Source: Parcubacteria group bacterium Gr01-1014_3 (GTDB lineage Bacteria > Patescibacteriota > Minisyncoccia > UBA6257 > WO2-44-18). Taken from it: 64,000 nt of DNA. Positions 5,257-52,611 of the stretch are shown here, piece after piece. The stretch covers positions 21,802 to 85,801 of the forward strand of contig VMGF01000001.1 of NCBI GenBank assembly GCA_007376445.1, written 5' to 3'. Both the position numbers and the translations under genes were made by a program. Every line of letters begins with the position of its first letter. Within the stretch, counting starts at the first letter, position 1. Below the pieces are notes generated by a model. That model had not been told where the DNA came from and did not search any database. It worked only from the letters and a program-made list of their open reading frames with translations.

Positions 5257-5445
5257 ATGGATCTCGCGCAATTCAAACTGGCCGTGCTGAGCCATAATGA
5301 ATTTACCGATGACCAAGTTGAAGAGATGCTCTATGAAGTAACCGTCAACGACGTCAACGATATCGTTGATCTAATCAATATTCTGAAGCGTAACCGCCCG
5401 AAACTCATTAAAAAGCTGAACGAGATGATTAAGAAAAATCAATAA
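5257..5445 (+). CDS. hypothetical small protein
   Basis: GGAGGA SD; followed by hairpin terminator 5443-5467. Confidence 0.5.
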   Translation: MDLAQFKLAVLSHNEFTDDQVEEMLYEVTVNDVNDIVDLINILKRNRPKLIKKLNEMIKKNQ

Positions 5446-5467
5446 CCGCTTAGGCGGTTATTTTTAT
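5443..5467 (+). terminator. rho-independent terminator
   Basis: aaccgcttaggcggtt + T-run. Confidence 0.6.
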
Positions 5468-5470
5468 AAT

Positions 5471-5499
5471 TTGACAAATTAAATTATTTATGCTAGAAT
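5471..5499 (+). promoter_or_regulatory. sigma70-type promoter TTGACA-N17-TAGAAT
   Basis: aatTTGACAaattaaattatttatgcTAGAATacc directly after upstream terminator. Confidence 0.6.
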
Positions 5500-10496: not shown

Positions 10497-10527
10497 TTTG
10501 ACAAAGTAGGCATTTTTATGCTATAAT
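10497..10527 (+). promoter_or_regulatory. promoter TTGACA-N19-TGCTATAAT (extended -10)
   Basis: gatTTGACAaagtaggcatttttaTGcTATAATcc. Confidence 0.55.
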
Positions 10528-10569: not shown

Positions 10570-10908
10570 ATGGCTGACGAGGTCGAGATCTTCGAATACT
10601 TCAAGACTCCGTTGGGACGAAATCCGAAGTTGCCGCCATTCATCGTTGAGCAGAGCGACAGCCATTACCGGGTGACGGGCACCTTCAGAAGCGGAGTTGT
10701 CTCCCCGATGGCCGTGCCGCAGATGAACTTCCGTGGATCCAAGAGGTACGCCCCCTGGAGCCAGCGGTTGTCGAAAGAAGATGCCGTTCGTTGGACGGGG
10801 TATCTGAACAAGCTCCACGCCGATGGTCACATCGACTGGAGCGGCGGCACTCCGGCGATCATCCCGGCAATCGACAGGCTTCCCAAGGAAGCAACCAAGG
10901 CCAGCTAG
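10570..10908 (+). CDS. hypothetical protein (GC-rich stand-alone gene)
   Basis: own TTGACA/TGCTATAAT promoter and hairpin terminator; start chosen at MADEVEIF. Confidence 0.55.
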   Translation: MADEVEIFEYFKTPLGRNPKLPPFIVEQSDSHYRVTGTFRSGVVSPMAVPQMNFRGSKRYAPWSQRLSKEDAVRWTGYLNKLHADGHIDWSGGTPAIIPAIDRLPKEATKAS

Positions 10909-10922
10909 CAGTAGGCGGCAGT

Positions 10923-10964
10923 GATCCCCCTGAATCCAATGCGGTTCAGGGGGATTTTTTATTT
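10923..10964 (+). terminator. rho-independent terminator
   Basis: gatccccctgaatccaatgcggttcagggggat + tttttatttt. Confidence 0.7.
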
Positions 10965-10991
10965 TGACAAATTAAATTTATTTGGTATAAT
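10964..10991 (+). promoter_or_regulatory. promoter TTGACA-N16-TGGTATAAT
   Basis: terminator T-run runs into ttTTGACAaattaaatttattTGgTATAAT. Confidence 0.6.
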
Positions 10992-11069
10992 TATCCGGAT
11001 CTTTGAAAATGGTTCGGCCCGTTCGACGGACTCAGGGCAGGCAAGCTCACCACGAGCAACGGAGGAGAT

Positions 11070-11946: not shown

Positions 11947-11993
11947 AGGGTTTTCTCTTTTATAACTTCCGATTTTGAATGTTGGTTTTATTA

Positions 11994-12036
11994 TTCGCAA
12001 TATTAAATCTCTGATTTGTATATTCGCGATTACTCC
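11994..12036 (-). promoter_or_regulatory. conserved 43-nt upstream motif, copy B (before hpf)
   Basis: TTCGCAATATTAAatctctgATTTGTATATTCGCGATTACTCC. Confidence 0.6.
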
Positions 12037-13007
12037 ACATATATCACTTCCTCCTCTAACTTTATGCCGTATTTCTTATCCACGCCAGACTTCACCAGTT
12101 TAATTAACTGCTTCACATCCTCCGCTTTGGCGCCGAGCGCGTTGACGATAAAGTTTGGATGCTTTGGCGAAATCATCGCGCCGCCGAAGCTGACTCCTTT
12201 CAATCCAGCCTGCGAAATAAGGTACGCCGTCGGCACGACCGGGAATGGGTCTTTTTTGATAACTTCCTTGAACTCTGAGTGGAGTTTTTTCGGGACCAGT
12301 CGCAAATCCACATTCTTAAAAATACTGCCGATATTCGGATACTCCAGCGGCTGGCGCGCTTTCCGGTAGGCGATCTTTTCCTCGATCGCCGCGCGGATGG
12401 CTTTCTTGTCGCCTTTTTTCATTTTGAAAACTGCTTCGATAATAATCTCCTTTGGCCCTAAGCCGACTTGCCCTGAGCTTGCCGAAGGGTCGTCGATCTT
12501 GAAAATGCTATTTCGATAACCAAATTTACATTCTGCATTATTGCGCTTCACTATCTTCGGGATCTTGGCAGAAATATCTAGGCTGACAACTTCATTTATA
12601 TTGTCTTTCGTTTCACCACCAAAAGCTCCGGCGTTACCGCGGATTGCGCCACCAACCGTCCCAGGCAGACCGCCAGCCCATTCGAATCCTGAAAGTGATT
12701 TAGTAATTGAGTAATTGAGTAATTCAGAAATCTGCACACCGGCTCCAACCCGGATCAGATTACCTTCCGCTTTTAATAAACCGATCTCCGGCTTTAAAAC
12801 CAGCCCGCCAAAACCCGCGTCGCTGATCAGAAGGTTGGTACCGCCGCCCAGCGTGAAGATCGGGAGTTTTTCCGCGCGCGCTTTTTCCACGGCGCAAACT
12901 ATGTCCTCAACAGTTTTCGCGGCAAAAAAATAGCGGGCAGCGCCGCCAATTTTGTAGTTGCTGTATTTGGCTAATTCGATTTTATTCTCAAACATGCATT
13001 TATTCAT
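12030..13007 (-). CDS. murB: UDP-N-acetylenolpyruvoylglucosamine reductase
   Basis: FAD-binding N-terminus KIGGAARYF...LGGGTNLL, C-terminal MurB domain; contains in-frame GC 20-mer encoding PSASSGQ. Confidence 0.85.
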   Translation of the reverse strand: MNKCMFENKIELAKYSNYKIGGAARYFFAAKTVEDIVCAVEKARAEKLPIFTLGGGTNLLISDAGFGGLVLKPEIGLLKAEGNLIRVGAGVQISELLNYSITKSLSGFEWAGGLPGTVGGAIRGNAGAFGGETKDNINEVVSLDISAKIPKIVKRNNAECKFGYRNSIFKIDDPSASSGQVGLGPKEIIIEAVFKMKKGDKKAIRAAIEEKIAYRKARQPLEYPNIGSIFKNVDLRLVPKKLHSEFKEVIKKDPFPVVPTAYLISQAGLKGVSFGGAMISPKHPNFIVNALGAKAEDVKQLIKLVKSGVDKKYGIKLEEEVIYVE

Positions 13008-13068: not shown

Positions 13069-13165
13069 AGTCGGCCTTTTGAAGGGCTGTATGGACGCGC
13101 ACTCAATTAACACAAATTGTATTGGAGGTCACCACATACAGCCCTTTAAGGGGCTGACTTTTTTT
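13069..13165 (+). ncRNA. large hairpin element (25-bp arms, 40-nt loop) followed by T7 run; candidate small RNA or terminator-like structure
   Basis: AGTCGGCCTTTTGAAGGGCTGTATG ... CATACAGCCCTTTAAGGGGCTGACT tttttttaat; both flanking genes are on the minus strand. Confidence 0.35.
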
Positions 13166-13211
13166 AATAAAAAGGACCAGGTAATCCTGGCCGGTTTGAA
13201 TCATCTTAAGC

Positions 13212-13475
13212 TTACTTCACGCGAATGGTAGTTTTTTGTTTTTCGCCACAGACGATGCACGCGAGAAAGCTGATTACTCCTTTAACATAACCGAAACCGT
13301 GCATCACCTTTTCGCAATGCAGATGAGAATCGACTCTGCCATAGTAGTACAATTGATTGTCTGGGATTCCCTCTTTTGGATTCAAGATTTTTTCCAAAAT
13401 CTCAGAAGGAATTTCCTTCAAGTCCTTACCGCCACCGCAGTCACACTTTTCCTCGTCGCCTTCCTGATCAGCCAT
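13212..13475 (-). CDS. Cys-rich small protein, hypothetical
   Basis: GGAGG SD; preceded by conserved 60-nt double-hairpin leader and TTGACA-N17-TAATCT promoter. Confidence 0.55.
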   Translation of the reverse strand: MADQEGDEEKCDCGGGKDLKEIPSEILEKILNPKEGIPDNQLYYYGRVDSHLHCEKVMHGFGYVKGVISFLACIVCGEKQKTTIRVK

Positions 13476-13493
13476 CTATGTCCTCCTTCAAAG

Positions 13494-13552
13494 CCAGCGC
13501 ACATACTTTATGTACGCGGTCGAGCATATAAAAGGAATTTCTTATGTGCTCG
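13494..13552 (-). ncRNA. conserved 60-nt double-hairpin leader element, copy 1
   Basis: near-identical to 41551-41611; hairpins CGAGCACATAAGAA-TTCCTTTTATATGCTCG and GCGCACATAA-N-TTATGTGCGC when read on minus strand. Confidence 0.45.
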
Positions 13553-13563
13553 ATTCCGCCGAT

Positions 13564-13592
13564 AGATTAGCAATTTAGGATGGATTTGTCAA
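13564..13592 (-). promoter_or_regulatory. promoter TTGACA-N17-TAATCT (minus strand)
   Basis: rc: TTGACAaatccatcctaaattgcTAATCT; identical copy at 14003-14031. Confidence 0.6.
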
Positions 13593-13593
13593 A

Positions 13594-13620
13594 TAAAAAA
13601 ACCGCTATCCAGTAGCGGCT
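13594..13620 (-). terminator. rho-independent terminator
   Basis: rc aagccgctactggatagcgg + ttttttt. Confidence 0.6.
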
Positions 13621-13976
13621 TCGTAGAATTTCACGGTCATTTTGTATATTTTATTTTTAGATGCTTCCATCGTGTAACCAACTACGTAGTCAAAAAAATT
13701 CCTACGGTTAACACTTTGATCTAGCCCCCGCCAGCCCAGATAAATACAGTGAGCAAAATCTTGACCGCTAACCGTGATCAGAAGCTTGTTCTTCTCGACC
13801 TCTTTCTTAGTTAATTCGTAGATCTTTGTTTCGAGAATGTCCCGATCTTTTCCAGAGAACTTTTCGGTAACCTTAGATCCGAGCGGATGACTACCCTTCA
13901 CAATCAGCGTGATGCCTCTTAAAATTCGGTAATTTCTGCCATCCTGATCAGTCTGAATCGGAAAACTTTCGCTCAT
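13605..13976 (-). CDS. hypothetical protein
   Basis: GGAGG SD before MSESFPIQ; own promoter (14003-14031) and terminator (13594-13620). Confidence 0.55.
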   Translation of the reverse strand: MSESFPIQTDQDGRNYRILRGITLIVKGSHPLGSKVTEKFSGKDRDILETKIYELTKKEVEKNKLLITVSGQDFAHCIYLGWRGLDQSVNRRNFFDYVVGYTMEASKNKIYKMTVKFYEAATG

Positions 13977-14002
13977 CCAGCCTCCTTCAAAGTACCGCCG
14001 AT

Positions 14003-14031
14003 AGATTAGCAATTTAGGATGGATTTGTCAA
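14003..14031 (-). promoter_or_regulatory. promoter TTGACA-N17-TAATCT (minus strand), exact duplicate
   Basis: 46-nt identity with 13553-13600. Confidence 0.6.
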
Positions 14032-14032
14032 A

Positions 14033-14057
14033 TAAAAAACCGCCGTTATAACGGCGG
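14033..14057 (-). terminator. rho-independent terminator
   Basis: rc ccgccgttataacggcgg + tttttt. Confidence 0.6.
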
Positions 14058-14281
14058 TGCCTGGTTCGGATTTTTCACGAAATCAACGGAGGTTAGGCCT
14101 GTAGAAAGCTCTTTTTTAACATCGTAGTCAGTGCCTTCCCAGGCAACGAATACATCGCAAGCCGAGCCGATCGCCGTATCCCAGCACTTCGCTAGTAATG
14201 GAATCCGAGGATCATCAGGACCAATACCTCCCTGCTTTAAAAATTCCGCAAAGGTAACCGTGTCAGAATCGATCACGCCAA
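14046..14281 (-). CDS. hypothetical small protein (GTG start)
   Basis: GGAGG then GTG start (VIDSDTV); hairpin terminator 14033-14057. Confidence 0.45.
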
Positions 14282-14577
14282 ACCTCCATTCAAAAGACCG
14301 CCAGTAGACTATCAAGATTTCAACTTTTTGTCAATCTAGACCCCTCCCTTATCGCTCCAGCCAGAGGCGGACAAGTTCGCGCAAAAAGGAGGGGTGCTCG
14401 ATTTTGTAGATGTTCGGCCACCGCCATGGCGGGGCAGGCAAGCTCACATACAAAATCGGCAAACAAAAGACTCCCCGAAGGGAGTCTTTTGCCACAAATT
14501 GCTAGGGCATTTCTTAGATCGGCTTGCGCTGAACTAAGAACTACTCATCACTCAATCTACCTACAAGTATACACGAA

Positions 14578-14606
14578 TTGACTTAAAAAGTCAACGGCGC
14601 TACAAT
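14578..14606 (+). promoter_or_regulatory. promoter TTGACT-N17-TACAAT for rny, -35 embedded in perfect palindrome TTGACTTAAAAAGTCAA
   Basis: sequence 14578-14606. Confidence 0.5.
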
Positions 14607-14653
14607 GTGGGTAATGTCGCAAACATTATTAACTAAATTTTCGAAATTAACAT

Positions 14654-16147
14654 ATGACACCAATTTTTCTCCTCGGTGGAGGGGCGGTTTTGTTTTTAGG
14701 TATCGCGCTTGGGTACTTCGTTCGTCAGGTTCTATCAACTAAGCAGTCGAACTCGCTTGAGCAGAGGGCAAAGCAGATCATTCTTGATGCCCAGGATAAG
14801 GCAGTCAGCTTATTAAACGACGCCAAGAAGGAAGAGCGTGAAAGAAAACTCCAGGTTGATAAGACCGAGGAGCGTTTGTTTAAAAAGGAAGAAAACCTCG
14901 ACCGCCAATCAAAAGCGGTCATTGACCAGGAAAATAAATTCCGGGGCGAAGTCAGCAAGCTTGAAGAGTCTAAAAAAACCGTCGCCGAACTTCATCAAAA
15001 AGCCGTTTTGGATCTGGAAAAAGTGGCCGGTCTAACCGCCGAGGAAGCCAAGGCGAAGCTGATGAAAGCCGTGCAAGAAGATCACCGCGCCAGTCTTATT
15101 AAGACCATTCAGGCGATGGAACATGAGAAAAAAGAAGAAATCGAGAAGAAGAGTTTGGAGATCATTACTGGCGCGATCCAGCGTTATGCCCGTTCTCATG
15201 TAGCCGACCTGACCACTACCGTATTCACCCTGCCAAACGAGGAGATCAAGGGTAAGATCATCGGCCGCGAGGGCCGGAATATCCGCACCCTAGAGCGTTT
15301 AACCGGCGCGGAATTGATCCTCGATGAATCCCCGGAAAGCTTGGTAATCTCTTCCTTTGATCCCCTTCGCCGCGAAGTGGCCCGTCTGACCCTGGAAAAG
15401 CTCATTAAAGACGGCCGCATCCAACCAGCCAAGATCGAGGAAAAAGTGGAGGAAGCAAAAAACGAAATGAACCGCCGCATGACCGAAGTTGGCGAACAGG
15501 CTTGCATGGAAGTCGGCGTAATCGGTTTACCAAAAGAATTAGTTCAGCTCTTGGGCCGGCTCTTTTTCCGAACCAGCTACGGCCAGAATGTTTTGATCCA
15601 TTCAATTGAAATGGCGCATATTGCCGGTATTATCGCTGCCGAACTTGGCGCTAACGTGGAAACCGCCAAAGCCGGAGCGCTCTTGCATGACATCGGAAAA
15701 GCCATCAGTCATGAGGTTGAAGGCACGCACGTGAACCTCGGCCGGAAGATCTTGCAGAAATATAATATCGACGAAAAAATTGTCCTGGCTATGGAAGCTC
15801 ATCATGAAGAATATCCGTTCGCCACTCCGGAATCGTTTATCGTGGCGGCTTGCGATGTTATCTCCGCCGCCCGTCCAGGCGCCCGCCGCGACACCGCGGA
15901 AAACTACCTGAAGCGTCTCGAAGACCTGGAAAAGATCGCTTCCAGCTATGAAGGCGTCAAAACCGTTTATGCTCTTTCCGCCGGCCGCGAGATCCGTGTC
16001 TTCGTGGTACCGGAAAAGATCGACGACTTCGGCGCTTTGCAGATGGCTAAAGACATCGCCGGCAAGATCTCTTCCCAGATGAAATATCCTGGCGAGATCA
16101 AGGTGAATGTCATCCGCGAGACCCGGGCTGTTGAGTACGCCAAATAG
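14654..16147 (+). CDS. rny: ribonuclease Y
   Basis: N-terminal TM, coiled coil, KH domain, HD domain (LLHDIGKA...HH). Confidence 0.9.
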   Translation: MTPIFLLGGGAVLFLGIALGYFVRQVLSTKQSNSLEQRAKQIILDAQDKAVSLLNDAKKEERERKLQVDKTEERLFKKEENLDRQSKAVIDQENKFRGEVSKLEESKKTVAELHQKAVLDLEKVAGLTAEEAKAKLMKAVQEDHRASLIKTIQAMEHEKKEEIEKKSLEIITGAIQRYARSHVADLTTTVFTLPNEEIKGKIIGREGRNIRTLERLTGAELILDESPESLVISSFDPLRREVARLTLEKLIKDGRIQPAKIEEKVEEAKNEMNRRMTEVGEQACMEVGVIGLPKELVQLLGRLFFRTSYGQNVLIHSIEMAHIAGIIAAELGANVETAKAGALLHDIGKAISHEVEGTHVNLGRKILQKYNIDEKIVLAMEAHHEEYPFATPESFIVAACDVISAARPGARRDTAENYLKRLEDLEKIASSYEGVKTVYALSAGREIRVFVVPEKIDDFGALQMAKDIAGKISSQMKYPGEIKVNVIRETRAVEYAK

Positions 16148-17408: not shown

Positions 17409-17795
17409 TTATAAAGTTAACTCGTCGAGCAACTTATCAATTTCAGCGCCAATGGCTTCATCGGACTCGAGATAATACTTAACTTCGCCAAGCTGGATCT
17501 GAAAATCCAGATTGCTAGCTTCACTGCGAAGTTTGGCTTCGTTGATCAAAGAAACCGCGCCAGGCGAAACTTTCTGAAGATTCAGATAAGAGAAGCCGCC
17601 GATAACCACGAAAAGCAAAAGGCTGGCCAGAGATAAGGCCATGCTCAACTTCAGACTGTCCAAAACTCCCCGGACTAGACCTGGAAACTGCTTCTGCGGA
17701 GCGGAGATGATTAAATTCTTGGAACGTTCAAGAAAGCCTTTTTCCGGCTGTAGAATCTTCAGTGATTTTAAAAGTTGTAAGATCTTTTCCTCCAT
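17409..17795 (-). CDS. putative anti-sigma factor (single TM)
   Basis: position immediately downstream of ECF sigma gene, central TM helix; inference from context only. Confidence 0.4.
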   Translation of the reverse strand: MEEKILQLLKSLKILQPEKGFLERSKNLIISAPQKQFPGLVRGVLDSLKLSMALSLASLLLFVVIGGFSYLNLQKVSPGAVSLINEAKLRSEASNLDFQIQLGEVKYYLESDEAIGAEIDKLLDELTL

Positions 17796-17804
17796 TTAAT
17801 TTAA

Positions 17805-17847
17805 TTCGCAATATTAATTCTTTTATTTGTACATTCGCGATTACTCC
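17805..17847 (-). promoter_or_regulatory. conserved 43-nt upstream motif, copy C (between ECF sigma and anti-sigma-like gene)
   Basis: TTCGCAATATTAATtcTTTTATTTGTAcATTCGCGATTACTCC; 9 nt from ATG 17795. Confidence 0.6.
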
Positions 17848-18401
17848 GATTCACCATCGGCGGACCGATCTCCCAGTTGTTCCCTGAGAGCATTGAGAGC
17901 GCGGTGCTGGATGAGCCTTACTGCCCCCTCACTTTTACCCAGCGTCGCGGCAATATCGCGATGCGGCAGGTCTTCGATGAATTTCATTATCAAAACGTCT
18001 TGCTGTTCAGGACCCAAGTTCCGCATAGCCTTCTGGATGACTTCCAGACTCAAGATTTTCTCCAGATTGTTTTCCGTCATGTCCACCAGCTTGACCGCGC
18101 TTTCATCCAACTCATCAACGTTGGCATGAAACTTTTTAGTCCGGTAGTGGTCAATGACCTTGTTTCGGGCGATCTGGTAAAGCCAGCTCGAGAATGGAAA
18201 GCCTTGCGACTTATATCCCCGAAGGTTCTGCCAGGCGCTTAAAAACACATCGTGGGTCAAATCTTCGGCCTCATACCGATTAGTGACCTTGAGAAGGATG
18301 AAGCGATAAATTTGAGGCGTGTAGTGGTCGTAAATTTGGCCAAAACACTCCTTTTCGCCCTTCTTAGCCCTATTAATTAATTTATCCTCACCTTCTAGCA
18401 T
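17841..18401 (-). CDS. RNA polymerase ECF-type sigma-70 family factor
   Basis: region 2 (FGQIYDHYTPQIYRFILLKV...DLTHDVFLSAWQNL) and region 4 HTH (DIAATLGKSEGAVRLIQHRALNALR). Confidence 0.85.
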   Translation of the reverse strand: MLEGEDKLINRAKKGEKECFGQIYDHYTPQIYRFILLKVTNRYEAEDLTHDVFLSAWQNLRGYKSQGFPFSSWLYQIARNKVIDHYRTKKFHANVDELDESAVKLVDMTENNLEKILSLEVIQKAMRNLGPEQQDVLIMKFIEDLPHRDIAATLGKSEGAVRLIQHRALNALREQLGDRSADGESE

Positions 18402-20158: not shown

Positions 20159-20500
20159 TTGAATGCTGTCTATATCGCGCTTGAAGCCTTGCGTTTCTCC
20201 AAGAAGGCTGGACATGGTGTCTGCCCGCGCCGGGTCGAGGAGCTCCGGATCGAAATCGAGAACGGAGCCGAAATCCATCCGATCCGGGTGAACGCTCTCG
20301 GCGACGGCACCTACACGATCAAGGACGGTCGCCATCGCGTGAAGGCGCACATCCTCGCCGGTTTCTCGGAGATTCTGGCAGTCATCGAGAATACAGCTAG
20401 CCGAATTAAACGTTTACTAAGAAAGGTTTTTGGTTTCCTCAGCCGCTCGAAAGAGCGGTTTTTTATTGTCGCTACTATCACATGTGATAGTACTATCTAG
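20159..20500 (+). CDS. ParB/sulfiredoxin-like nuclease-domain small protein (TTG start)
   Basis: IKDGRHRVKAHILAG matches ParB N-terminal DGxHR signature; GGAGG SD 6 nt before TTG; 3' end overlaps hairpin terminator and palindrome cluster. Confidence 0.5.
   Translation: MNAVYIALEALRFSKKAGHGVCPRRVEELRIEIENGAEIHPIRVNALGDGTYTIKDGRHRVKAHILAGFSEILAVIENTASRIKRLLRKVFGFLSRSKERFFIVATITCDSTI
20441..20466 (+). terminator. rho-independent terminator at 3' end of ParB-like gene
   Basis: ccgctcgaaagagcgg + ttttttatt. Confidence 0.55.
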
Positions 20501-28401: not shown

Positions 28402-28464
28402 AGTGGTTATACTACATCAAAATGAATTCATTGGCAATAGCCGAACTCGGAATCCGAACACAAA

Positions 28465-28600
28465 TGTTAATTTCCAATTTTAAATTTTTAATTTTAAATT
28501 AAATCAAAATGAGAAAATGTTAAAAAATTTATTCATTAATTCATTCAATTAAAACTTAAAATTTATAATTTAAAATTATTCCATTTTAGCTTAGAATTTG
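28465..28600. repeat. AT-rich AATTTTAAATT repeat island (operon spacer rpsU / HIT)
   Basis: tandem degenerate units ttccaattttaaatttttaattttaaatt...; same family at 28931-29026, 30340-30456, 38170-38265, 50692-50806, 51670-51755, 37255-37300. Confidence 0.7.
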
Positions 28601-28605
28601 TGTAT

Positions 28606-28929
28606 TTAAGGTTGTGGCCAGCCACCCAAAAGATGCAGATGTAAGTGGTCGATTACCTGACCACCCTCCCGTCCTACATTAAAAACGAGCTTATAACCCT
28701 TTAAATCGAACTTTGCCGCCAGATCTTTCGCCGCGTAGATCAGACCGGCCAAGAGCTCCTTATGATTGCCCTCCAGGTGAGCGATAGATTGAATGTGCTC
28801 TTTTGGGATAACTAGATAATGAACCGGTGCGGATGGCCGGATGTCTTTAAAAGCCATTAAACTCTCGGTCTCCATTGCCAGTTCAGCGGGAATTTCTTTT
28901 TTCGCAATTTTACAGAAGACACAGTCCAT
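28606..28929 (-). CDS. HIT family (histidine triad) hydrolase
   Basis: GGQVIDHLHLHLLGG HIT motif. Confidence 0.85.
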   Translation of the reverse strand: MDCVFCKIAKKEIPAELAMETESLMAFKDIRPSAPVHYLVIPKEHIQSIAHLEGNHKELLAGLIYAAKDLAAKFDLKGYKLVFNVGREGGQVIDHLHLHLLGGWPQP

Positions 28930-28930
28930 G

Positions 28931-29026
28931 AAAATTTTAAATTTCCAATTTTAAATTTTAATTTAATTTTTTAATTTATGAATTTTATAATTCATTTAAA
29001 ATTAAAAATTTAGAATTTAAAATTAC
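28931..29026. repeat. AT-rich AATTTTAAATT repeat island (spacer HIT / hisS)
   Basis: aaattttaaatttccaattttaaattttaatttaatttttt... Confidence 0.7.
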
Positions 29027-30339: not shown

Positions 30340-30456
30340 GATTAAGAATTTATAAGCAAGTTTTTTGGAATTTTAAATTATAAATTTTTAATTTTAAATG
30401 AATTTTAAATTTTGAAATTAGTAATTAATTTAAAATTTATAATTTAAACTTTAAAA
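30340..30456. repeat. AT-rich repeat island (spacer hisS / lepB)
   Basis: ggaattttaaattataaatttttaattttaaatgaattttaaattttgaaatt... Confidence 0.7.
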
Positions 30457-31011
30457 TTATTCAACGCCTGGTCGGGAAATAATGCCAAGCTCTTTAACCG
30501 GTAAGAGGCGGGCCCTGACAATACCAACGATATATCTCCTCTCCAGCGGTCCCCAACTTCTTGAATCCAGGCTGTTCAAACGATTATCCCCCATCACGAA
30601 ATACTGATCCGGCCCGAGCACCGCTTCCACGCCACCGGTCGTAAAAGTATTCTCCGGAAGATATTTTTCGTTGAGGAAAATCTCCACGCCTTTGTTGAAA
30701 ACTTTAACTTCATTTTTTCTGACGGTTACTTTATCTCCCGGAATGCCGATAATTCTTTTAATAAAAAAAGTTTTAGGATCTTTAGGATACCGGTGCACGA
30801 TCACGTCGCCGCGCTCCGGCTCACCGAATCGATAAGTCAGTTCATCTACTATTAAATAATTGCCGTCGTAAAAGTTCGGCTCCATACTGGCGCCGCTCAC
30901 TAAAAATGGCTGGGCGATGAACTGGCGAATCAAAAACACCACGGCCGCCGAAACGATGACCACCTCCAGCACTTCCCAGACAGAAGATAAGAATTTCTTG
31001 AAGCCAACCAT
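30457..31011 (-). CDS. lepB: signal peptidase I
   Basis: GASMEPNF (Ser box), RIIGIPGDKV, YFVMGDNRLNSLDSR boxes. Confidence 0.85.
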   Translation of the reverse strand: MVGFKKFLSSVWEVLEVVIVSAAVVFLIRQFIAQPFLVSGASMEPNFYDGNYLIVDELTYRFGEPERGDVIVHRYPKDPKTFFIKRIIGIPGDKVTVRKNEVKVFNKGVEIFLNEKYLPENTFTTGGVEAVLGPDQYFVMGDNRLNSLDSRSWGPLERRYIVGIVRARLLPVKELGIISRPGVE

Positions 31012-33819: not shown

Positions 33820-33860
33820 TTCGCAATATTAATCTTTTATTTGTATATTAGCGATTACTT
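33820..33860 (-). promoter_or_regulatory. conserved 43-nt upstream motif, copy D (before pilM-like gene)
   Basis: TTCGCAATATTAATcTTTTATTTGTATATTaGCGATTACTt; 11 nt from ATG 33808. Confidence 0.55.
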
Positions 33861-34748: not shown

Positions 34749-35595
34749 AATATTTTCTCTAAAACTAGAGAATTGATGTTCCCACCGCACGGACGGTTTT
34801 CCCGTATACGGCGAGCTCAATGCATTTTTTGCTTTAGCTTATAAAGATCACGCAAACCGCTAGGAATAAGGTGTTCGCCTTTGCGGATCCTACGCATAAT
34901 CTCACAGAAAATTTGGAAATCGTACCTCTTTGAAGGAAATCGTAATCGATTTTCTTTGAAAAACGGTATAATTATTTCTGCCAAATCTGTTCTGTTAGCT
35001 ACTTCGAAACGATAGCAATGCTGATGATTTTCGCGATTGTCTTTTTGAAAGTAGACATTCCCGCATTTAAAGTATTCCTTTAAAGCATCCAGTATTACCT
35101 TATCCTTTTCGATAAGCTTTACGTAAAATCTAGGCTCTATCTTTACTCTTCTAGTTGTTCTGTTGATTTGATCAGGATTACGAACATAAGCAGTAAAACT
35201 GCCTTCGCCATCCACCAAACCAACGATGTAATCTTTAGTTAACATTGAGTGAGTGCCTTCATCCCGCTAATCGAGACTACTATGACTCAGCTGACTTCTG
35301 ACGCTGCGTCAGTTTTATGATACCTCGATATTGCTATCGAGAACAGCATCAGATCTCCACAGGTCACGTAAAATTCTCTTCTTAGCATCCTAGACAAGCC
35401 GTAGATAAAGTCTTCCCCGCCCTCACCACCCACTGGCAGGTCGACTGGCTTTGTTAATGTCTGGCTGTTATTTGCTTTCAGATCCTCCACCGAACACCTC
35501 GCGATGCTCGGCTATCTTTTAGCTACGTTCCGATGACGGACATCGGAAGAATGGATTTTAACCATTTAGAAAATTACGCTGCTGCGCGCTTTTAT
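34749..35595 (-). mobile_element. self-splicing-type intron (847 bp) in 16S rRNA near the helix-44 base (E. coli position about 1400), carrying a LAGLIDADG homing endonuclease ORF
   Basis: conserved CCTGTACTCAC | ... | CGCCCGTCA junction is split by non-rRNA sequence containing ORF 34817-35245. Confidence 0.7.
34817..35245 (-). CDS. LAGLIDADG homing endonuclease (intron-encoded)
   Basis: YIVGLVDGEGSF dodecapeptide motif, size 142 aa, located inside 16S intron. Confidence 0.8.
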   Translation of the reverse strand: MLTKDYIVGLVDGEGSFTAYVRNPDQINRTTRRVKIEPRFYVKLIEKDKVILDALKEYFKCGNVYFQKDNRENHQHCYRFEVANRTDLAEIIIPFFKENRLRFPSKRYDFQIFCEIMRRIRKGEHLIPSGLRDLYKLKQKMH

Positions 35596-35912
35596 TGTGA
35601 GTACAGGACTCGAGAACGTATTCACCGTGGTATAGCTGACCCACGATTACTAGCGATTCCAGCTTCATGAGGGCGAGTTGCAGCCCTCAATCTGAACTGA
35701 GGCCATTTTTGATGGGATTAGCTCCGCCTTGCGGCTTGGCAACCCTTTGTAATGGCCATTGTAGCACGAGTGTGGCCCAGGGCATCAGAGGGCCATGCGG
35801 ATTTGACGTCATCCCCGCCTTCCTCCGTGTTAAACACGGCAGTCTCCCGCGACATATAAAACGCAGGATAGGGGTTGCGCTCGTTAACCCACTTAAGGGA
35901 ACGCTTCAAAGT

Positions 35913-35944
<32 letters not shown>

Positions 35945-36067
35945 TCACGTCCTTGAGAGACGACGCACCTTTCGGCGCGTCTTCGTGACCATTTCAAGCC
36001 CTGGTAAGGTTCTTCGTTTATTGTCGAATTAAACCTCATGCTCCACCGCTTGTGCGAGTCCCCGTCT

Positions 36068-36099
<32 letters not shown>

Positions 36100-36609
36100 T
36101 CCCAGGCGGTCAACTTAACGCGTTAGCTACGCCACTCCGAGGGTCGATACTCGAAACAGCAAGTTGACATAGTTTAGGGCGTGGACTACAAGGGTATCTA
36201 ATCCTTTTTGCTCCCCACGCTTTCGTGCAATGAGAGTCAGGAGTGCTCCAGTTAAATGCCTTCGCCTTTGGTATTCCTCACAATATCAACGGATTTCACC
36301 CCTACACCGTGAGTTCTATTAACCTCTAGCACCCTCTAGTCAGGCCGTATCTTCTGCGAGCTTCCCGTTGAGCGGGAAGATTTTACAAAAGACGCACCCG
36401 ACCTCCTGCGCACGCTTTACGCCCAATAAATCCGGATAACGCTCGTGGCCTTCGTATTACCGCGGCTGCTGGCACGAAGTTTGCAGCCACTTATTCCATG
36501 GGTACAATCAATAACTTTTTCCCCATTAAAAGCAGTTTACGATCCGAAGACCTTCATCCTGCACGCGGCGTCGCTCGATCAGACTTTCGTCCATTGTCGA
36601 ATATTCTCG

Positions 36610-36652
<43 letters not shown>

Positions 36653-37419
36653 CGTTGGGGATCAGCCTCTCAGCCCCCCTACCGGTCATAGCCTTGGTGA
36701 GCCATTACCTCACCAACTAGCTGATCGGACCTAGGCCGCTCCCGAAGTGACTTGCGTCTTTCGTCTTTCGACAATATCGGACATTAGTCTATCTTTCGAT
36801 AGATTATTTCCGTCTTCGGGGTGCGTACCAAGGTGTTACTAACCCGTTCGCCACTATACTTTTATCTCTCTTGACTTGATATAATCTCATCTTAATTAAC
36901 AAAAGTACCGTTCGACTTGCATGCCTTATCCACGCCGCCAGCGTTCATCCTGGACCAGGATCAAATCCTCAAAAAAAATTACCGAACATTGAATTTATTT
37001 TAGTAAATTCACCATTCGCTAACTGTTGGGACAACTACAAAATTCTTGACTAAATTTTGACTCGATCTTGATTTTTAATTCTTGGTTGTGTATACAACAC
37101 ACTGCAATTTTCGAAGTTCAGTCGGCTGCGCTTTTTTAATAACGCATCCGGCCCGCTCTCCCTGAATCCCAGAGGGAACCGGCCGGATGAATTAAAACCT
37201 TTATTCACTTGTCGCCTATCTGTGAAAAGAAGTATATATGAAAGCGCTGTTTCGTGTCAACTGTCACAAAACAGCGAATTTTCAATTCTCAATTTTGCAA
37301 TTTTTGTCCCTTCGGGACATCTCCTGTAGGAAGACAATTAATTTACAATGAATTAATGTCCAAACAGTTTGATAATTTTATTTTAAGCATTGAATGAAAA
37401 TTGGTATTTGGAAATTGAA

Positions 37420-38086: not shown

Positions 38087-38169
38087 ACGTTTCTCCTATT
38101 ATTTCGTGACAGGAACAGTCAAAGAACTTGACTTACATACTACTCTATTTCAAAGTATTTGTCAAATGG

Positions 38170-38265
38170 GAAATTTTAAGTTTTAAATTATAAATTTTAA
38201 TTTAATTATTTAATTTCAAAATTTAAAATTAATTTATAATTAAAAATTTAGAATTTAAAATTATC
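38170..38265. repeat. AT-rich repeat island (upstream of lipoprotein gene / rpmE)
   Basis: gaaattttaagttttaaattataaattttaatttaatt... Confidence 0.65.
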
Positions 38266-38429
38266 AAATACCTCTTGCTTTTTCGTAATTTCTCGTATAT
38301 AATGTGTATTAAGTTTATGAAGCAAGACATTCACCTCCCGATTTCTTAATTCTTAAAATTAAGAAATCGAGGATCCTCGATTTTGTAGACAAATCAAAGA
38401 TTTGTACAAAATCGGGACAAAATACCTTT

Positions 38430-40233: not shown

Positions 40234-40290
40234 ATTCTTTCCTCCATTCAACGAACCGCCTACAAAGTAACAGTTTCAACACAAAATCAC

Positions 40291-40362
40291 AAGTACTATC
40301 ACGCGTGATAGTGCCCACCGCTTTCCCCATAGGAAAGTACTTTCCTATGGGGAAAGCGGTGG
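40291..40362. promoter_or_regulatory. palindromic operator cluster P2
   Basis: CTATCACGCGTGATAG plus 45-nt palindrome CACCGCTTTCCCCATAGGAAAGTACTTTCCTATGGGGAAAGCGGTG. Confidence 0.5.
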
Positions 40363-40655: not shown

Positions 40656-40708
40656 CTGAAATCCTTTCAAGGTACGACCACACTCTACAATAAAAAGGCT
40701 TATTTCGC

Positions 40709-40789
40709 AAGTACTATCACGCGTGATAGTACTATCCCATGTGATAGTGGCGAATATTCCATTATCCAGCCATGGCTGGATAATGGAAT
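40709..40789. promoter_or_regulatory. palindromic operator cluster P3
   Basis: CTATCACGCGTGATAG, CTATCCCATGTGATAG, TTCCATTATCCAGCCATGGCTGGATAATGGAA. Confidence 0.5.
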
Positions 40790-41332: not shown

Positions 41333-41533
41333 TTAGGCAACCCCGAACTCGATTCGATGGCTACATGCTTTGCAGTTGAAGACGTACTTTCTTTTACTGC
41401 CGAGCCATCTTGCGCCCTTACGAACATCGTCTCCAGCTTTCAAGACATGGATTGTTTTACAGTCCTGTCTATCGCACTGAACCTGTAATCCAACCCACGG
41501 CTTCGGACTCTCATTCTTCGCATCCAGTGGCAT
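41333..41533 (-). CDS. zinc-ribbon small protein
   Basis: GGGAGG SD; CDRQDC...CKAC; preceded by conserved 60-nt double-hairpin leader. Confidence 0.5.
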   Translation of the reverse strand: MPLDAKNESPKPWVGLQVQCDRQDCKTIHVLKAGDDVRKGARWLGSKRKYVFNCKACSHRIEFGVA

Positions 41534-41550
41534 AACGCCTCCCTTTCAAA

Positions 41551-41611
41551 CCAGCGCACATAACAATTTATGTGCGCGGCCGAGCATATAAAAGGAATTC
41601 TTATGTGCTCG
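41551..41611 (-). ncRNA. conserved 60-nt double-hairpin leader element, copy 2
   Basis: see copy 1; directly upstream of GGGAGG SD of zinc-ribbon gene 41333-41533. Confidence 0.45.
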
Positions 41612-41648
41612 GGTACCGCCAGAATAGTACAACAAAACTAACTATGCC

Positions 41649-41755
41649 GCAACTGCTTTCCTATAGGAAAGCAGTTGCTATCCAGCTGGATAGCACTATC
41701 GCGCGTGATAGCATCTTCGCTTTCCTGAGGGAAAGTACTTTCCCTCAGGAAAGCG
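41649..41755. promoter_or_regulatory. palindromic operator cluster P4
   Basis: GCAACTGCTTTCCTATAGGAAAGCAGTTGC, CTATCCAGCTGGATAG, CTATCGCGCGTGATAG, CGCTTTCCTGAGGGAAAGTACTTTCCCTCAGGAAAGCG. Confidence 0.5.
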
Positions 41756-41841: not shown

Positions 41842-42153
41842 TTATCGAGCCGATCCTTTCAACTTAGAGACTGTCGGCCTCTCGTAGGATTCGGTCAGAA
41901 CGCCGAGATCCCACTTGAAGCCGAGGGCCGTCGCAAGCCGGACCATCATCTTGATGGTGATTGGAAACTCGCCATCCAGCAGTTGGGAAAGATATTCAGA
42001 TGGAATACCAACCCGCTTCGCCAACTCATCCTTGGAAATACCCCGGGCGTCGATCGCGTCATAAACCTTACTCGAGATAGCCACATGAAGTCGACTGGCC
42101 TCGCCCTGAACCTCGCGCTCAATATTCTTCCGCTTTTTCAAGATCTCATTCAT
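41842..42153 (-). CDS. XRE-family HTH transcriptional regulator
   Basis: ISKDELAKRVGIPSEYLSQLLDGE HTH_3 pattern. Confidence 0.7.
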   Translation of the reverse strand: MNEILKKRKNIEREVQGEASRLHVAISSKVYDAIDARGISKDELAKRVGIPSEYLSQLLDGEFPITIKMMVRLATALGFKWDLGVLTESYERPTVSKLKGSAR

Positions 42154-42359: not shown

Positions 42360-42418
42360 TAGCTGAACTCCTTAAAGTGCTAGCCAGATAGTACAATAAA
42401 AGATTGTACTTGGCAAGC

Positions 42419-42588
42419 TTACCCACGCACTAATTTTGCTTATTCAATATTTAAATTTTCTATCTTTAAGTCTTATCTAAATCAAAACAGCGATACGCTA
42501 GGGATCACGGCTATTCGCCGCCCGCGTATCGCTGTTCATATATCTGCAAAATTAGTGCGGGGTTATCGTTTTGTTGCTAAAATTTCGG
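42419..42588. mobile_element. MITE-like 170-bp element with 17-bp terminal inverted repeats, copy 1
   Basis: TIR CCCACGCACTAATTTTGC ... GCAAAATTAGTGCGGGG; internal palindrome ACAGCGATACGC...GCGTATCGCTGT; about 90% identical to 52441-52611. Confidence 0.55.
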
Positions 42589-49656: not shown

Positions 49657-50688
49657 CTATTTTCTTTTCAATACTTTTTTCACCGCGCCAACGATATCTT
49701 TCACTCCCATTCCATACTTTTCAATAAGTTCCAGCGGAGCGCCGGATTCGCCAAAGACATTTTGAAGACCGATGAACTCCATCGGTACCGGACACTTTTT
49801 TGCTAAAAACTCCGCGACAGCTCCGCCAAGACCGCCAGAAACCTGATGCTCCTCCACCGTGACCACTGCTCCAGCTTTTTGCGCTACTTCCAAAATCGTG
49901 TGTTCATCGAGCGGTTTTACCGTGTGGCTATTTATCACCGTCACGTTTATTTTTTCTTTTTCCAGTTCTTTGGCGGCAAGCAGAGCGTTGTGAAGTAAAA
50001 GCCCGCAACCAATGATCACCACATCCGGCTTGCCAACTTGTCCTGAGCCCGCCTGCCCCGCCGTGGCGGTGGCCGAAGGATTCCACATTATCTCCGCTTT
50101 TCCAGGAGTAAACGGCGTGTCTTCCGTGGTCATCACCGGAGATTTCTCGCGCGCGAAACGGATATAAGTCGGGCCCCAGAGTTTGGCCGCGGCGATGGTG
50201 GCCTTTTTAGCTTCGATCGCGTCGCAGGGTACAAACACTTTCATATTCGCCAGCACGCGCATTGTGGCGATATCCTCTACTGCCTGATGCGTGGCCCCAT
50301 CTGGCCCCACCGAAATGCCGGCGTGATGCCCGGCGATCTTCACGTTGGAATCGTTGTAGGAAATCGTAGTTCGGATCTGCTCCCAGTTTCGGCCAGGAGA
50401 GAAGGCGGCGTAAGAAGAAATAAAAGGAATCTTTCCGGAAACTCCCAGTCCCGCCGCGATGGCCGCCATATTTTGCTCCGCCACGCCAAGCTCAAAAAAT
50501 CGTTCAGGATATTTTTTCGCGAAAGCTTCAGATCGGGTAGACTCGCTCAAATCCGCGCAAAGCACCACCACATTCGGGTCGGCCTCGCCGGCGATCAAAA
50601 GCCCATCGCCGTAACCATTACGAATAGGCTTTTGATCTACGTCCTTATCAAAAACTTTCGGATTTAGTTTTAGTTCTGGGTTTAACAT
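49657..50688 (-). CDS. tkt: transketolase, C-terminal (pyrimidine-binding) subunit
   Basis: FELGVAEQNM, GATHQAVEDIA; split-gene arrangement with N-terminal subunit upstream. Confidence 0.85.
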   Translation of the reverse strand: MLNPELKLNPKVFDKDVDQKPIRNGYGDGLLIAGEADPNVVVLCADLSESTRSEAFAKKYPERFFELGVAEQNMAAIAAGLGVSGKIPFISSYAAFSPGRNWEQIRTTISYNDSNVKIAGHHAGISVGPDGATHQAVEDIATMRVLANMKVFVPCDAIEAKKATIAAAKLWGPTYIRFAREKSPVMTTEDTPFTPGKAEIMWNPSATATAGQAGSGQVGKPDVVIIGCGLLLHNALLAAKELEKEKINVTVINSHTVKPLDEHTILEVAQKAGAVVTVEEHQVSGGLGGAVAEFLAKKCPVPMEFIGLQNVFGESGAPLELIEKYGMGVKDIVGAVKKVLKRK

Positions 50689-50691
50689 GGA

Positions 50692-50806
50692 ATAATTTTA
50701 AATTATAAATTTTAAGTTTTAATTGAATGAATCAATGAACAAATTTTTAAACATTTTATCATTTTGATTTAATTTAAAATTAAAAATTTAAAATTGAAAA
50801 TTAGCG
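50692..50806. repeat. AT-rich repeat island (spacer between split tkt genes)
   Basis: aataattttaaattataaattttaagttttaattgaatg...aaaattaaaaatttaaaattgaaaatt. Confidence 0.7.
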
Positions 50807-51682
50807 CTACTCGTGTTCTGATTTTATTTTCCCTTTTAGCGTCCTTAATTCTGCCAGCGCTTTATTGGCTTCTTCTTTATTCGGCGGTTTGCCGTGCCAG
50901 TTGTAATCATTTTCCATGAAGCTCACTCCCTTCCCCGGAATCGTGTGCGCGATGATCACAGTCGGTTTTTCATAAATCGCCTGCGCTTCAGTGATCGCGT
51001 CCACGAACTGCTCGATATTATGGCCATCAACTTCCAGCACGTGCCAGCCGAAAGATTCATATTTAGATCGGAATGGCTCAAGCGGCATGATATTTTCCGT
51101 AAAGCCATCGATCTGAATATTGTTACGATCCACCACCATCGTGAGATTGCTCAACCGATTTTTTCCGGCAAACATCGCCGCTTCCCAGGTGTTGCCGCAA
51201 TCATGCTCTCCGTCAGAAGTAAGCGCGTAAACCCGGTATTTCTTTTTATCCATTCGCGCCGCGAGCGCCATACCCACTGCTTGTGAAAGTCCGGAGCCAA
51301 GCGGGCCGGAAGTAGTTTCCATACCCGGAAGAGAAGTCCTATGCGGATGCCCCTGAAGCCGGGAATTTATTTTGCGGAGAGTTTTTAATTCGGAAATCGG
51401 AAAATATCCCGCGTGCGCCATGGTTACATACCGCACCGGGCAAATATGACCGTTGGAAAGAACTAGCCGATCTCGCTCCGGCCAATCCGGCCGTTTCGGA
51501 TCATGATTCAAAATATGAAAATAAAAAGCGGTGAAGATATCAGTCATGCCGAGCGGACCGGCTGAATGACCGGAACCGGCCTGAACCAGCGTCTCAATAA
51601 TATCCTCACGGATCTCAGTCGCCTTTTCCTCGAGGAATTTTAATTTTTTATCGTGCAGAGCGGGGAGCATTATAATTTTCAA
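50807..51682 (-). CDS. tkt: transketolase, N-terminal (TPP-binding) subunit
   Basis: GHSAGPLGMTDI, SDGEHDCGNTWEA TPP motifs. Confidence 0.85.
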   Translation of the reverse strand: MKIIMLPALHDKKLKFLEEKATEIREDIIETLVQAGSGHSAGPLGMTDIFTAFYFHILNHDPKRPDWPERDRLVLSNGHICPVRYVTMAHAGYFPISELKTLRKINSRLQGHPHRTSLPGMETTSGPLGSGLSQAVGMALAARMDKKKYRVYALTSDGEHDCGNTWEAAMFAGKNRLSNLTMVVDRNNIQIDGFTENIMPLEPFRSKYESFGWHVLEVDGHNIEQFVDAITEAQAIYEKPTVIIAHTIPGKGVSFMENDYNWHGKPPNKEEANKALAELRTLKGKIKSEHE

Positions 51683-52422: not shown

Positions 52423-52440
52423 GGCTTAAGTATAACAAAA

Positions 52441-52611
52441 TTACCCACGCACTAATTTTGCCTTTTCAATATTTAAATTTTTCTATCTTTAAGTCTTTTT
52501 TAAATTAAAACAGCGATACGCTGGGGATCACGGCTATTCGCCGCCCGCGTATCGCTATTTATATATCTGCAAAATTAGTGCGGGGTTATCGTTTTGTTCC
52601 TAAAATTTCGG
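52441..52611. mobile_element. MITE-like 170-bp element, copy 2 (upstream of rpe)
   Basis: same TIRs and internal palindrome as copy 1. Confidence 0.55.

Follow-up and report, generated by a model that had tools for sequence, protein, structure and literature searches.

A repeated putative promoter module upstream of two adjacent, unrelated small genes in a Parcubacteria bacterium

How do three small, unrelated genes come to stand in a row on a bacterial chromosome, each with what appears to be a promoter and a terminator of its own, and why do two of them have the same promoter? The question is raised by a locus within a 64,000-nt stretch of DNA (the window) from Parcubacteria group bacterium Gr01-1014_3 (GenBank assembly GCA_007376445.1, contig VMGF01000001.1, positions 21,802 to 85,801), an uncultured groundwater bacterium of the Parcubacteria/Paceibacteria, in the candidate phyla radiation (CPR). 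The window is chromosomal, and all features of the finding lie on its minus strand; a window position x corresponds to record position 245087 - x (264,686-bp ENA contig ERZ27284378:k139_87659). The genes follow one another in the order g3, g2, g1, and murB; we refer to the promoters of g3, g2, and g1 as A, B, and C, respectively, and to the promoter module as P. An earlier note on this DNA had described the genes as carried by a modular promoter-terminator cassette system, reminiscent of integron cassettes. We propose that they are probably three moron-like stand-alone units in a tolerant divergent spacer, of which g2 and g1 share a promoter by recent local duplication or capture, a known kind of promoter reuse. 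A site-specific cassette system is not supported, and the locus looks like the reuse of one promoter on a local scale. No paper on the source metagenome-assembled genome (MAG) was found in the literature, and nothing specific to CPR promoters turned up.

An exact repeat upstream of g2 and g1

The putative promoters of the three genes are arranged as follows.

13995..14043, minus strand: promoter module copy B, made of GCGG, T6, A, TTGACA (14031-14026), a 17-nt spacer with TGc, TAATCT (14008-14003), and ATCGGCGG; predicted from sequence to drive g2 via the leader TACTTTGAAGGAGGCTGG
13556..13605, minus strand: promoter module copy C, as copy B but with T7 for T6 (-35 box at 13592-13587, -10 box at 13569-13564); predicted to drive g1
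14306..14334, minus strand: promoter A of g3, made of TTGACA (14334-14329), a 17-nt spacer with TGa, and TAGTCT (14311-14306), followed by the leader GGCGGTCTTTTGAATGGAGG

Copies B and C form a direct repeat in which 45 nt are exactly the same (13556-13600 and 13995-14039; repeat family D13), and blastn lengthens the repeat to 50 nt at 98% identity with one indel in the T-run (13556-13605 versus 13995-14043). The 46-nt identity that the earlier note had placed at 13553-13600 and 13993-14044 is therefore real, with coordinates that were slightly off. Read 5' to 3' on the minus strand, the repeat runs through GCGG, T6-7, and ATTTGACAAATCCATCCTAAATTGCTAATCTATCGGCGG, with a 17-nt spacer that ends in TGc and leads to TAATCT, so that it holds the T-run, a perfect -35 box, the TGn-extended -10 box, and the first 8 bases of the predicted transcript. 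Chance can effectively be excluded as the source of a 45-mer repeat in 64 kb. The copies are neighbors, 439 nt apart, with a segment of 394 nt between the direct repeats. Upstream of both stand intrinsic-terminator hairpins whose stems differ in sequence, and alignments of the B and C sites found no DNA similarity past the module borders, a shared 12-nt Shine-Dalgarno (SD) segment apart. The termini of the module (TTTTTTATTTGAC... and ...CTATCGGCGG) are not inverted repeats of one another, and terminal inverted repeats are lacking.

Misassembly does not account for the repeat, since at both junctions contigs of two other ENA assemblies read through with 100% identity and with unique flanks to either side (L090 and L091 across g3-P-g2 and L089 across g2-P-g1-murB). 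The linear order is common to four independent other assemblies. Strains differing in the presence of single cassettes, as the cassette proposal would have it, were not seen: the contigs retrievable by exact-protein look-up all have the same order, and none of them lacks g2.

The hexamer TTGACA occurs 16 times in the 64 kb, and approximately 10 of these sites are promoter-like, sharing TTGACA(A)A, a 16- to 18-nt spacer, and TGn-TAnnnT (a generic consensus of TTGACA-N14-TGn-TAnnnT). Regions of 110 nt were aligned pairwise, and the local-alignment scores were set against shuffles, as listed below.

B versus C: score 47 (z = 24)
5471 versus 10964: score 28
A versus B: score 23
Remaining promoter pairs: scores 17-23

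The sites at 5471, 10498, 10964, 21521, and 14334 have only the generic strong-promoter consensus in common, because scores of 17 to 28 are background. For the same reason, common descent of A with B is not demonstrable, their score of 23 being within the range of unrelated pairs. Several of the earlier claims are affected. The junctions said to recur at 5443-5499 and 10923-10992 do have the same anatomy (hairpin, T-run, and TTGACAAAT, at 5441-5499 and 10923-10991) but not the same sequence (scores 17-28), and the promoters at 10497 and 21521, which had been taken for relatives of the module, match it at the level of the generic consensus (scores within 17-28). A T-run that leads into TTTGACAAAT...TAATCT had been described for all three genes; it is found at g2 and g1, whereas g3 has TAGTCT and no terminator abutting promoter A upstream. 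Four of the approximately 10 promoters directly follow a terminator, an adjacency that would be expected in a compact genome with short intergenic regions. Could the whole finding then reduce to a generic promoter consensus or to an assembly artifact? That account is right for the five sites named above, all of them strong promoters with TTGACA(A)A and TGn-TAnnnT, but it is refuted for B and C, which are identical over 45 nt including the whole spacer, and contigs from other assemblies span both copies with unique flanks; we therefore consider it extremely improbable. In other words, the absence of identity beyond the hexamers, which would have undone the earlier proposal, holds for the other junctions it cited and not for B and C.

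Copies of the module were searched for in approximately 83 kb of this genome, comprising the window and 19 kb past its ends. By nhmmer, no further copy was found in the window, in the 19 kb beyond its ends, or across related loci totaling 1.3 Mb. JGI metagenome contigs and IMG/VR gave 0 matches to the exact 29-nt promoter core, and the 1.2-kb block had no blastn match among phage or plasmid collections. In the sequence searched, the supposed modular system for inserting or shuffling genes comes down to two identical copies and one diverged neighbor.

Genes, terminators, and leaders of the three units

The genes, their terminators, and two segments of the leaders are listed below.

14046..14276, minus strand: g3, a 76-aa orphan with a GTG start and a GGAGG SD sequence 6 nt upstream
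14039..14058, minus strand: putative intrinsic terminator of g3, ACCGCCGttatAACGGCGGT then T6, with 8 pairs (6 of them G-C) and the g3 stop codon TAA inside the hairpin
13605..13976, minus strand: g2, 123 aa, of a rare small-protein family (start by the ENA caller at TTG 14012, giving 135 aa)
13598..13622, minus strand: putative intrinsic terminator of g2, GAAGCCGCTActggaTAGCGGTTTT, T7 in total, with 10 pairs and the g2 stop codon TAG inside the 3' arm
13494..13555, minus strand: two-hairpin insertion in the g1 leader, 62 nt, between GGCGG and CTTTGAAGGAGG
13482..13493, minus strand: shared leader end with the SD sequence, CTTTGAAGGAGG; the same 12 nt stand in leader B at 13981-13992
13212..13475, minus strand: g1, an 87-aa Cys/His-rich orphan with CxC...HC...CxxC
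13175..13192, minus strand: putative intrinsic terminator of g1, GGCCAGGattaCCTGGTC then CTTTTTATT

As judged from their sequences, the three products are not paralogous (BLASTP E = 0.024 for g2 versus g3 and 1.2 for g2 versus g1), as the earlier note had stated. Its range for the third gene, 14046-14281, is out of frame, the start being the GTG at 14276. Among 5.8 billion proteins, g1 and g3 each match only themselves, and g2 has a sole close match (P0001, 99% identity). The g1 product is identical to the NCBI entry 'hypothetical protein G01um10143_43 [Parcubacteria group bacterium Gr01-1014_3],' and an identical 76-aa g3 is called in two other ENA assemblies. A HMMER search of 1.84 billion representatives gave four remote homologues of g2 (89-108 aa, 38-40% identity, E < 1e-3), which share the motifs GQDFxHC and RVYGY. 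Two tandem g2-family paralogues (103-115 aa and 108 aa) lie at 1064-1752 of an unrelated short contig (L092, Logan SRR22387954), where they come after a ComEC-like gene, arranged like an operon and lacking the promoter module. An AlphaFold2 model of g2 built from a small alignment reached moderate confidence (predicted local distance difference test [pLDDT] 74.8, predicted template modeling score [pTM] 0.68) and had no fold match in PDB or BFVD. No Pfam, PHROG, PADLOC, or NCBIfam family was assigned to g1, g2, or g3.

Codon-usage log-odds, trained on the long genes of the window, were best in the annotated frame for all three genes (0.36 for g1, 0.21 for g2, and 0.25 for g3; 0.38 for hpf), and GGAGG stands 4 to 6 nt before each start codon. 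Their G+C contents are 0.44, 0.42, and 0.485, the values for the window, murB, and rny being 0.465, 0.48, and 0.51, respectively. Taken together, g1 to g3 are probably real, host-adapted genes. The statement that the genes of such units are often GC-richer is not borne out by the three focal genes; it is true of the plus-strand genes at 10570-10908 (0.59) and approximately 5585 (0.54).

The hairpin terminators and T-runs described in the earlier note are indeed present after all three genes (14058-14039, 13622-13598, and 13192-13175), and its view of the genes as stand-alone promoter-gene-terminator units agrees with their consensus anatomy, as predicted from sequence. The T-run of the g1 terminator leads into a different, murB-associated element. 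A unit would consist of a sigma-70-type promoter (a perfect -35 box, a 17-nt spacer with a TGn-extended -10, and TA(A/G)TCT), a short leader (GGCGGT..TTTGAA-GGAGG), a small open reading frame (ORF), and a terminator overlapping the stop codon. The terminator would stop the upstream transcript, and its T-run, which abuts the next -35 box, may double as an A/T-rich upstream element; the next promoter would then start a new transcript. With a terminator and a new promoter in each unit, each gene is predicted to be expressed on its own.

In leader B, copy B is followed by TA-CTTTGAAGGAGG-CTGG-ATG into g2, and leaders B and C align once the 62-nt insertion is removed from the latter. The inserted element, of approximately 62 to 70 nt, is made of two hairpins, CGAGCACATAAGAA..TATATGCTCG and then GCG(U/C)ACAUAA..UAUGUGCGC, and lies between the transcription-start region and the SD sequence. 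A second copy stands at approximately 41540-41614 on the minus strand, before an unrelated 66-aa Cys-rich ORF (nhmmer E = 1.5e-10). The two copies fold at -28.7 and -36.1 kcal/mol (z = -3.6 and -3.2), and one U-to-C change turns a G-U pair into G-C. No copy was found by nhmmer in 1.3 Mb of relatives, and the hairpin-leader pattern had 0 matches in JGI metagenome contigs and IMG/VR. A known RNA family was considered for the element and rejected, an Rfam scan of 13100-14700 (E up to 10) having returned only chance-level matches and none at 13476-13566. Paralogy of g1 with the other hairpin-leader gene (41333-41533) was likewise discarded, since the two gave no alignment.

The motif TTGAA(N0-2)GGAGG is found 8 times in the window versus 0.5 expected, and 6 of the 8 occurrences immediately precede the start codons of small genes on the minus strand, in the regions 13.4-14.3 kb and 40-44 kb. 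The fuller leader GGCGGT..TTGAA.GGAGG (also written GGCGGT..TTTGAAGGAGG) is present at 14302, 13999, and 40260 (40241-40260). These few cases suggest that small accessory genes here use a common stock of expression signals, which fits reuse of promoters and leaders as a general habit of this genome.

Origin of the shared promoter

The genes around the locus are ordinary chromosomal ones (secA, hpf, murB, rny, HU, a sigma factor, ftsZ/ftsA, 16S rRNA, and sugar-phosphate metabolism), and the direct flanks of the units are the housekeeping genes murB, hpf, secA, rny (RNase Y), and HU, without prophage genes. The nearest RNase Y relatives in GTDB genomes, at 69-76% identity, belong to Parcubacteria/Paceibacteria MAGs. 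We compared the divergent murB-rny spacer with that of five relatives in which this synteny is conserved: it measures 1647 nt here, 375-524 nt in four of them (L003, L006, L007, and L011), and 873 nt in the fifth (L009). By tblastn, no homologues of g1, g2, or g3 were found in 80 related loci. The long spacer and the missing homologues indicate that the three units, which sit between two conserved non-coding elements, are species-specific additions, and the earlier description of the genes as accessory stands: they are absent from the five syntenic relatives and have no or almost no homologues among the 5.8 billion proteins. In L009, the same position is taken by a single small gene, different and unrelated, that has a predicted promoter and terminator of its own. 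A conserved promoter "slot" was considered on this basis and rejected (top non-self nhmmer E = 2; blastn 72% over 54 nt; score 23, the generic background); the likeness of the L009 promoter to copy B was downgraded to generic because unrelated promoters of the window score 17-28 among themselves.

For mobility, we examined the gene calls of five overlapping stretches amounting to 80.6 kb (contig range 174139-254769), in which approximately 4.5 kb at about 27-31 kb of the window are unlisted. These calls include no integrase, transposase, recombinase, or phage family, so the cognate recombinase of the cassette proposal has no candidate among them. The 3' ends of the units are simple GC-rich hairpins of 8 to 10 bp with T-runs and, by eye, without a GTTRRRY core. 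The only hint of mobility comes from the one other record that carries g2, a 579-nt contig from a different metagenome (ORJL011706332.1, here L087; NCBI GCA_900218215.1). Its first 141 nt equal its last 141 nt, which gives a closed cycle of 438 nt with 2 single-nucleotide differences from the window. Its order is the g2 3' end, terminator 2, P, leader B, g2, terminator 2, and P, and the junction terminator 2-P-leader B is absent from the linear arrangement. Taken at face value, the contig could represent tandem copies or circles of the g2 unit formed via the promoter repeat. It could also be an assembler artifact. Iterative de Bruijn assemblers that end at k = 141 output loops with a 141-nt overlap; at low coverage the flanks could have been clipped as tips at k < 45, where a loop arises because the repeat collapses, and the loop carried to k = 141. 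The hint is thus ambiguous.

The 45/45-nt identity (50 nt with one indel), together with the 12-nt SD segment, points to a recent local duplication or capture of the promoter. The 62-nt two-hairpin element would later have been gained by one copy or lost by the other. Direct repeats of 45 to 50 nt, 439 nt apart, would offer a substrate for RecA-dependent recombination or replication slippage, and recombination between them could amplify or loop out the g2 unit; the 438-nt unit of L087 with its 141-nt overlap fits such recombination.

The closest published parallel is that of putative mobile promoters, sequences upstream of non-paralogous genes that share at least 80% identity over 50 nt or more; more than 4000 families, most of them pairs, have been described (Matus-Garcia, Nijveen and van Passel 2012; PMC3575422). 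Copies B and C come under this definition, aligning over 50 nt at 98% with 1 gap before non-paralogous genes; like most of the published families, they are a pair in one genome (98-100% over 45-50 nt) without an associated insertion sequence or known mobile element. The survey used a range of -150 to -50 relative to the start codon; the g1 copy (-81 to -130) falls inside it and the g2 copy (-19 to -67), which is closer to the start codon, only partly. Unlike those promoters, the copies here are neighbors (439 nt) with no dispersal, the -10 box and the transcription-start region are part of the module, and one copy has an inserted structured leader. CPR genomes were reportedly not among the complete genomes of that 2011 survey.

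The units also resemble phage morons, which carry a promoter and a terminator of their own and are extra DNA relative to related genomes (PMC3594210). Here too the units are independent, with a predicted promoter and factor-independent terminator of their own, and form extra DNA between conserved genes; by predicted anatomy g2 and g1 agree with the consensus, and g3 is less typical on its upstream side. Unlike morons, they lie on a bacterial chromosome, between murB and rny, with no phage genes nearby. Their G+C content is 0.42-0.485 versus 0.48-0.51 in the neighbors, and their codon usage is host-like. With integron cassettes they share the tandem arrangement of short unrelated single-gene units (300-450 bp) and possibly a small circle (L087). 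However, no IntI was found among the gene calls examined, the hairpins are plain 8- to 10-bp GC stems with T-runs that by eye are not attC-like, and integron cassettes are typically promoterless with a common Pc, whereas each gene here has its own TTGACA-17-TAnTCT and follows a terminator or intergenic DNA, and the repeat is the promoter. With no integrase among those gene calls, with hairpins that look like plain terminators, and with predicted promoters of their own, the units depart from the integron analogy on every testable feature. Correia elements, ERIC, and REPIN are likewise short repeated non-coding sequences that give an adjacent gene a promoter. Such Correia- or miniature inverted-repeat transposable element (MITE)-like repeats differ from the module, which has no terminal inverted repeats, no target-site duplication, and two adjacent copies without dispersal. 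Finally, amplification or deletion between direct repeats (by RecA or slippage) would match the 45- to 50-nt repeats flanking 394 nt, with L087 as its expected product; however, this would be a consequence of the repeat and not its origin.

If promoter duplication or capture is the true explanation, the locus is a clean example, and a datable one, of how a promoter is reused in a reduced CPR genome, in which new or acquired orphan genes gain expression through a copied strong resident promoter and an insulating terminator. This would bear on the origin and expression of the "hypothetical small protein" fraction of CPR genomes and would add no new mechanism. If the 438-bp loop were a real circle or amplification, it would point to homology-driven cassette turnover without a dedicated recombinase, which would matter considerably more. 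In that scenario the promoter module would itself be the recombination site, the 438-bp g2 unit would circularize or amplify and re-insert at any promoter copy, and orphan genes would be added, lost, and shuffled in an "expression slot" between the conserved small RNA (sRNA) and murB. L087 closes exactly leader B-g2-terminator 2-P in 438 nt and comes from a different metagenome, the order P-g2-terminator-P-g1 is what a single circle crossover at P would produce, and in L009 the corresponding place is filled by another, unrelated small gene that has a predicted promoter and terminator to itself. As against this, the loop contig can be an artifact, judging from assembler behavior, all four other assemblies are linear with no contig lacking g2, the L009 promoter scores 23 against copy B (generic background) and conserved slot flanks are not demonstrated, and the only two copies in 83 kb are adjacent. 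We regard such exchange as unlikely. Its more general form, a recombinase-free CPR cassette mechanism with the promoter repeat as crossover site, whereby units of approximately 440 bp circularize or amplify, re-integrate, and reshuffle orphan arrays at the sRNA-murB slot, is quite unlikely.

The remaining accounts place the origin of the promoters elsewhere. Promoters A, B, and C might descend from an ancient triplication, with B and C kept the same by gene conversion or by strong selection on a regulator-binding promoter. The three do have a common frame (TTGACAAA..TTG.TA.TCTA..GGCGGT..TTTGAA.GGAGG), the leader part of which recurs at 40241-40260, and an imperfect palindrome, TAAATTGCTAATCTA, lies over the -10 box as a speculative candidate operator. 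Yet A and B score 23, no better than unrelated pairs (17-28), full identity over the 17 spacer positions and the T-run exceeds usual selective maintenance, and gene conversion needs flanking homology, of which there is none on either side; an old triplication therefore seems improbable to us. Alternatively, the units might be cargo of a decayed phage or integrative element and carry that element's own type of promoter. Their architecture fits the moron definition of own promoter, own terminator, and extra DNA (PMC3594210), and TTGAA-GGAGG and the two-hairpin element recur at 40-44 kb among clustered small Cys-rich genes, which adjoin an XRE-type helix-turn-helix (HTH) gene and lambda-operator-like palindromes (TATCACGCGTGATA). 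Phage cargo is nonetheless hardly to be expected here, given that the 80.6 kb of gene calls hold no phage, integrase, or transposase family, that PHROG gave no match and phage, plasmid, and IMG/VR collections none at the DNA level, that codon usage is host-like with a G+C content only slightly different, and that the units lie between housekeeping genes with no prophage.

Several points weigh against recent local duplication or capture as well. The repeat, the unit anatomy, the lineage specificity, and the lack of a recombinase family among the gene calls examined are shown, whereas we infer promoter and terminator activity (from consensus alone), how and how recently the duplication took place, and recombination of one copy with the other. 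TAATCT matches 3 of the 6 positions of the -10 consensus, which is why a simple promoter scan does not list it. Since approximately 83 kb were searched, more module copies may exist elsewhere. The mechanism is not demonstrated for a duplication of only 50 nt with sharp borders and unrelated DNA on both sides, and L087 could be a sign of something more active than passive repeat recombination. Moreover, the leader motifs and the hairpin element are common to the small genes at 40-44 kb, so that the sharing is wider than a single duplication explains.

Other non-coding elements of the spacer and the window

The two conserved elements that border the units were also characterized. Beside rny, at 14465-14595 on the minus strand, lies an sRNA-like conserved unit with a putative promoter (TTGACT-17-TATACT), the -35 box of which forms a palindrome with the -35 box of the divergent rny promoter, and a body of approximately 95 nt (AGAUUGAGUGAUGAG...CAAUUUGUGGC) with a terminator end. 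In L006, L007, L009, and L011, orthologues are found at the corresponding position, and L003 likewise shows blastn similarity. For five sequences, RNAalifold gave 34 pairs, 12 of them with compensatory double changes, and no Rfam family reached threshold.

The second element, of approximately 90 nt (13069-13158), always lies directly upstream of murB, in the window as in L003 to L009 and L011, including cases in which murB has moved. Each genome has one such element, L011 with 2 or 3 nested copies. It has a core of approximately 45 nt between inverted repeats of 9 to 11 nt, GCTGTATG(T)GG and CCATACAGC. Seen from murB, the core points one way in the window, L005, L006, and L009 and the other way in L003, L004, L007, L008, and L011; judging by sequence, it looks like an invertible segment. 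Toward murB, one orientation shows TTGGAGGTCACCACATG (SD and ATG) and the other the anti-SD-like UGGUGACCUCCAA.

Upstream of promoter A, 27 nt of the spacer (14413-14439) match 50051-50077, within a transketolase coding sequence, at 96% (GCCTGCCCCGCC(A/G)TGGCGGTGGCCGAA). The match lies inside a larger imperfect palindrome (14398-14458) and may be filler DNA, hinting at a patchwork origin of the spacer.

Operator-like palindromes, TACTATCAC(G/A)(C/T)GTGATAGTA, were observed at 20473-20497, 40287-40318, 40705-40736, and 41687-41712, upstream of several small Zn-ribbon-like genes and beside the XRE-type HTH gene (41842-42153, minus strand); they may form a small repressor regulon or be the remnant of a mobile element. 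Another motif of approximately 56 nt, reading GGAGTA(A/G)TCGCGAATATACAAAT-N10-TTAATATTGCGAAT on the minus strand, is found at 759-814, 11982-12037, 17793-17848, and 33833-33859 with 75-93% identity. It occupies four short spacers, each separating two genes of like direction (S2 to EF-Ts, murB to hpf, the sigma factor gene to an ORF of 128 aa, and an ORF of 186 aa to one of 500 aa), and is, by its sequence and placement, a putative further upstream module common to unrelated genes.

Many intergenic regions (28460-29025, 30369-30461, 38152-38282, 50694-50812, and others) carry AT-rich periodic repeats (AATTTTAAATTTT-like; families D1-D3, D5, and D6), which may be tracts of curved DNA or of the upstream-element (UP) type. 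A direct repeat of approximately 175 nt (42414-42588 versus 52436-52611; families D4 and D15), 91-94% identical and 10 kb apart, has both copies in intergenic DNA upstream of minus-strand genes, and the short contig L086 spans one of them. Just downstream of the 16S gene (35550-36976), which matches the full model in only 1427 nt, the minus strand holds an Rfam match to group II intron D1-D4 (35254-35345; 37.9 bits versus a gathering threshold of 35) and an ORF for a LAGLIDADG homing endonuclease (34817-35245).

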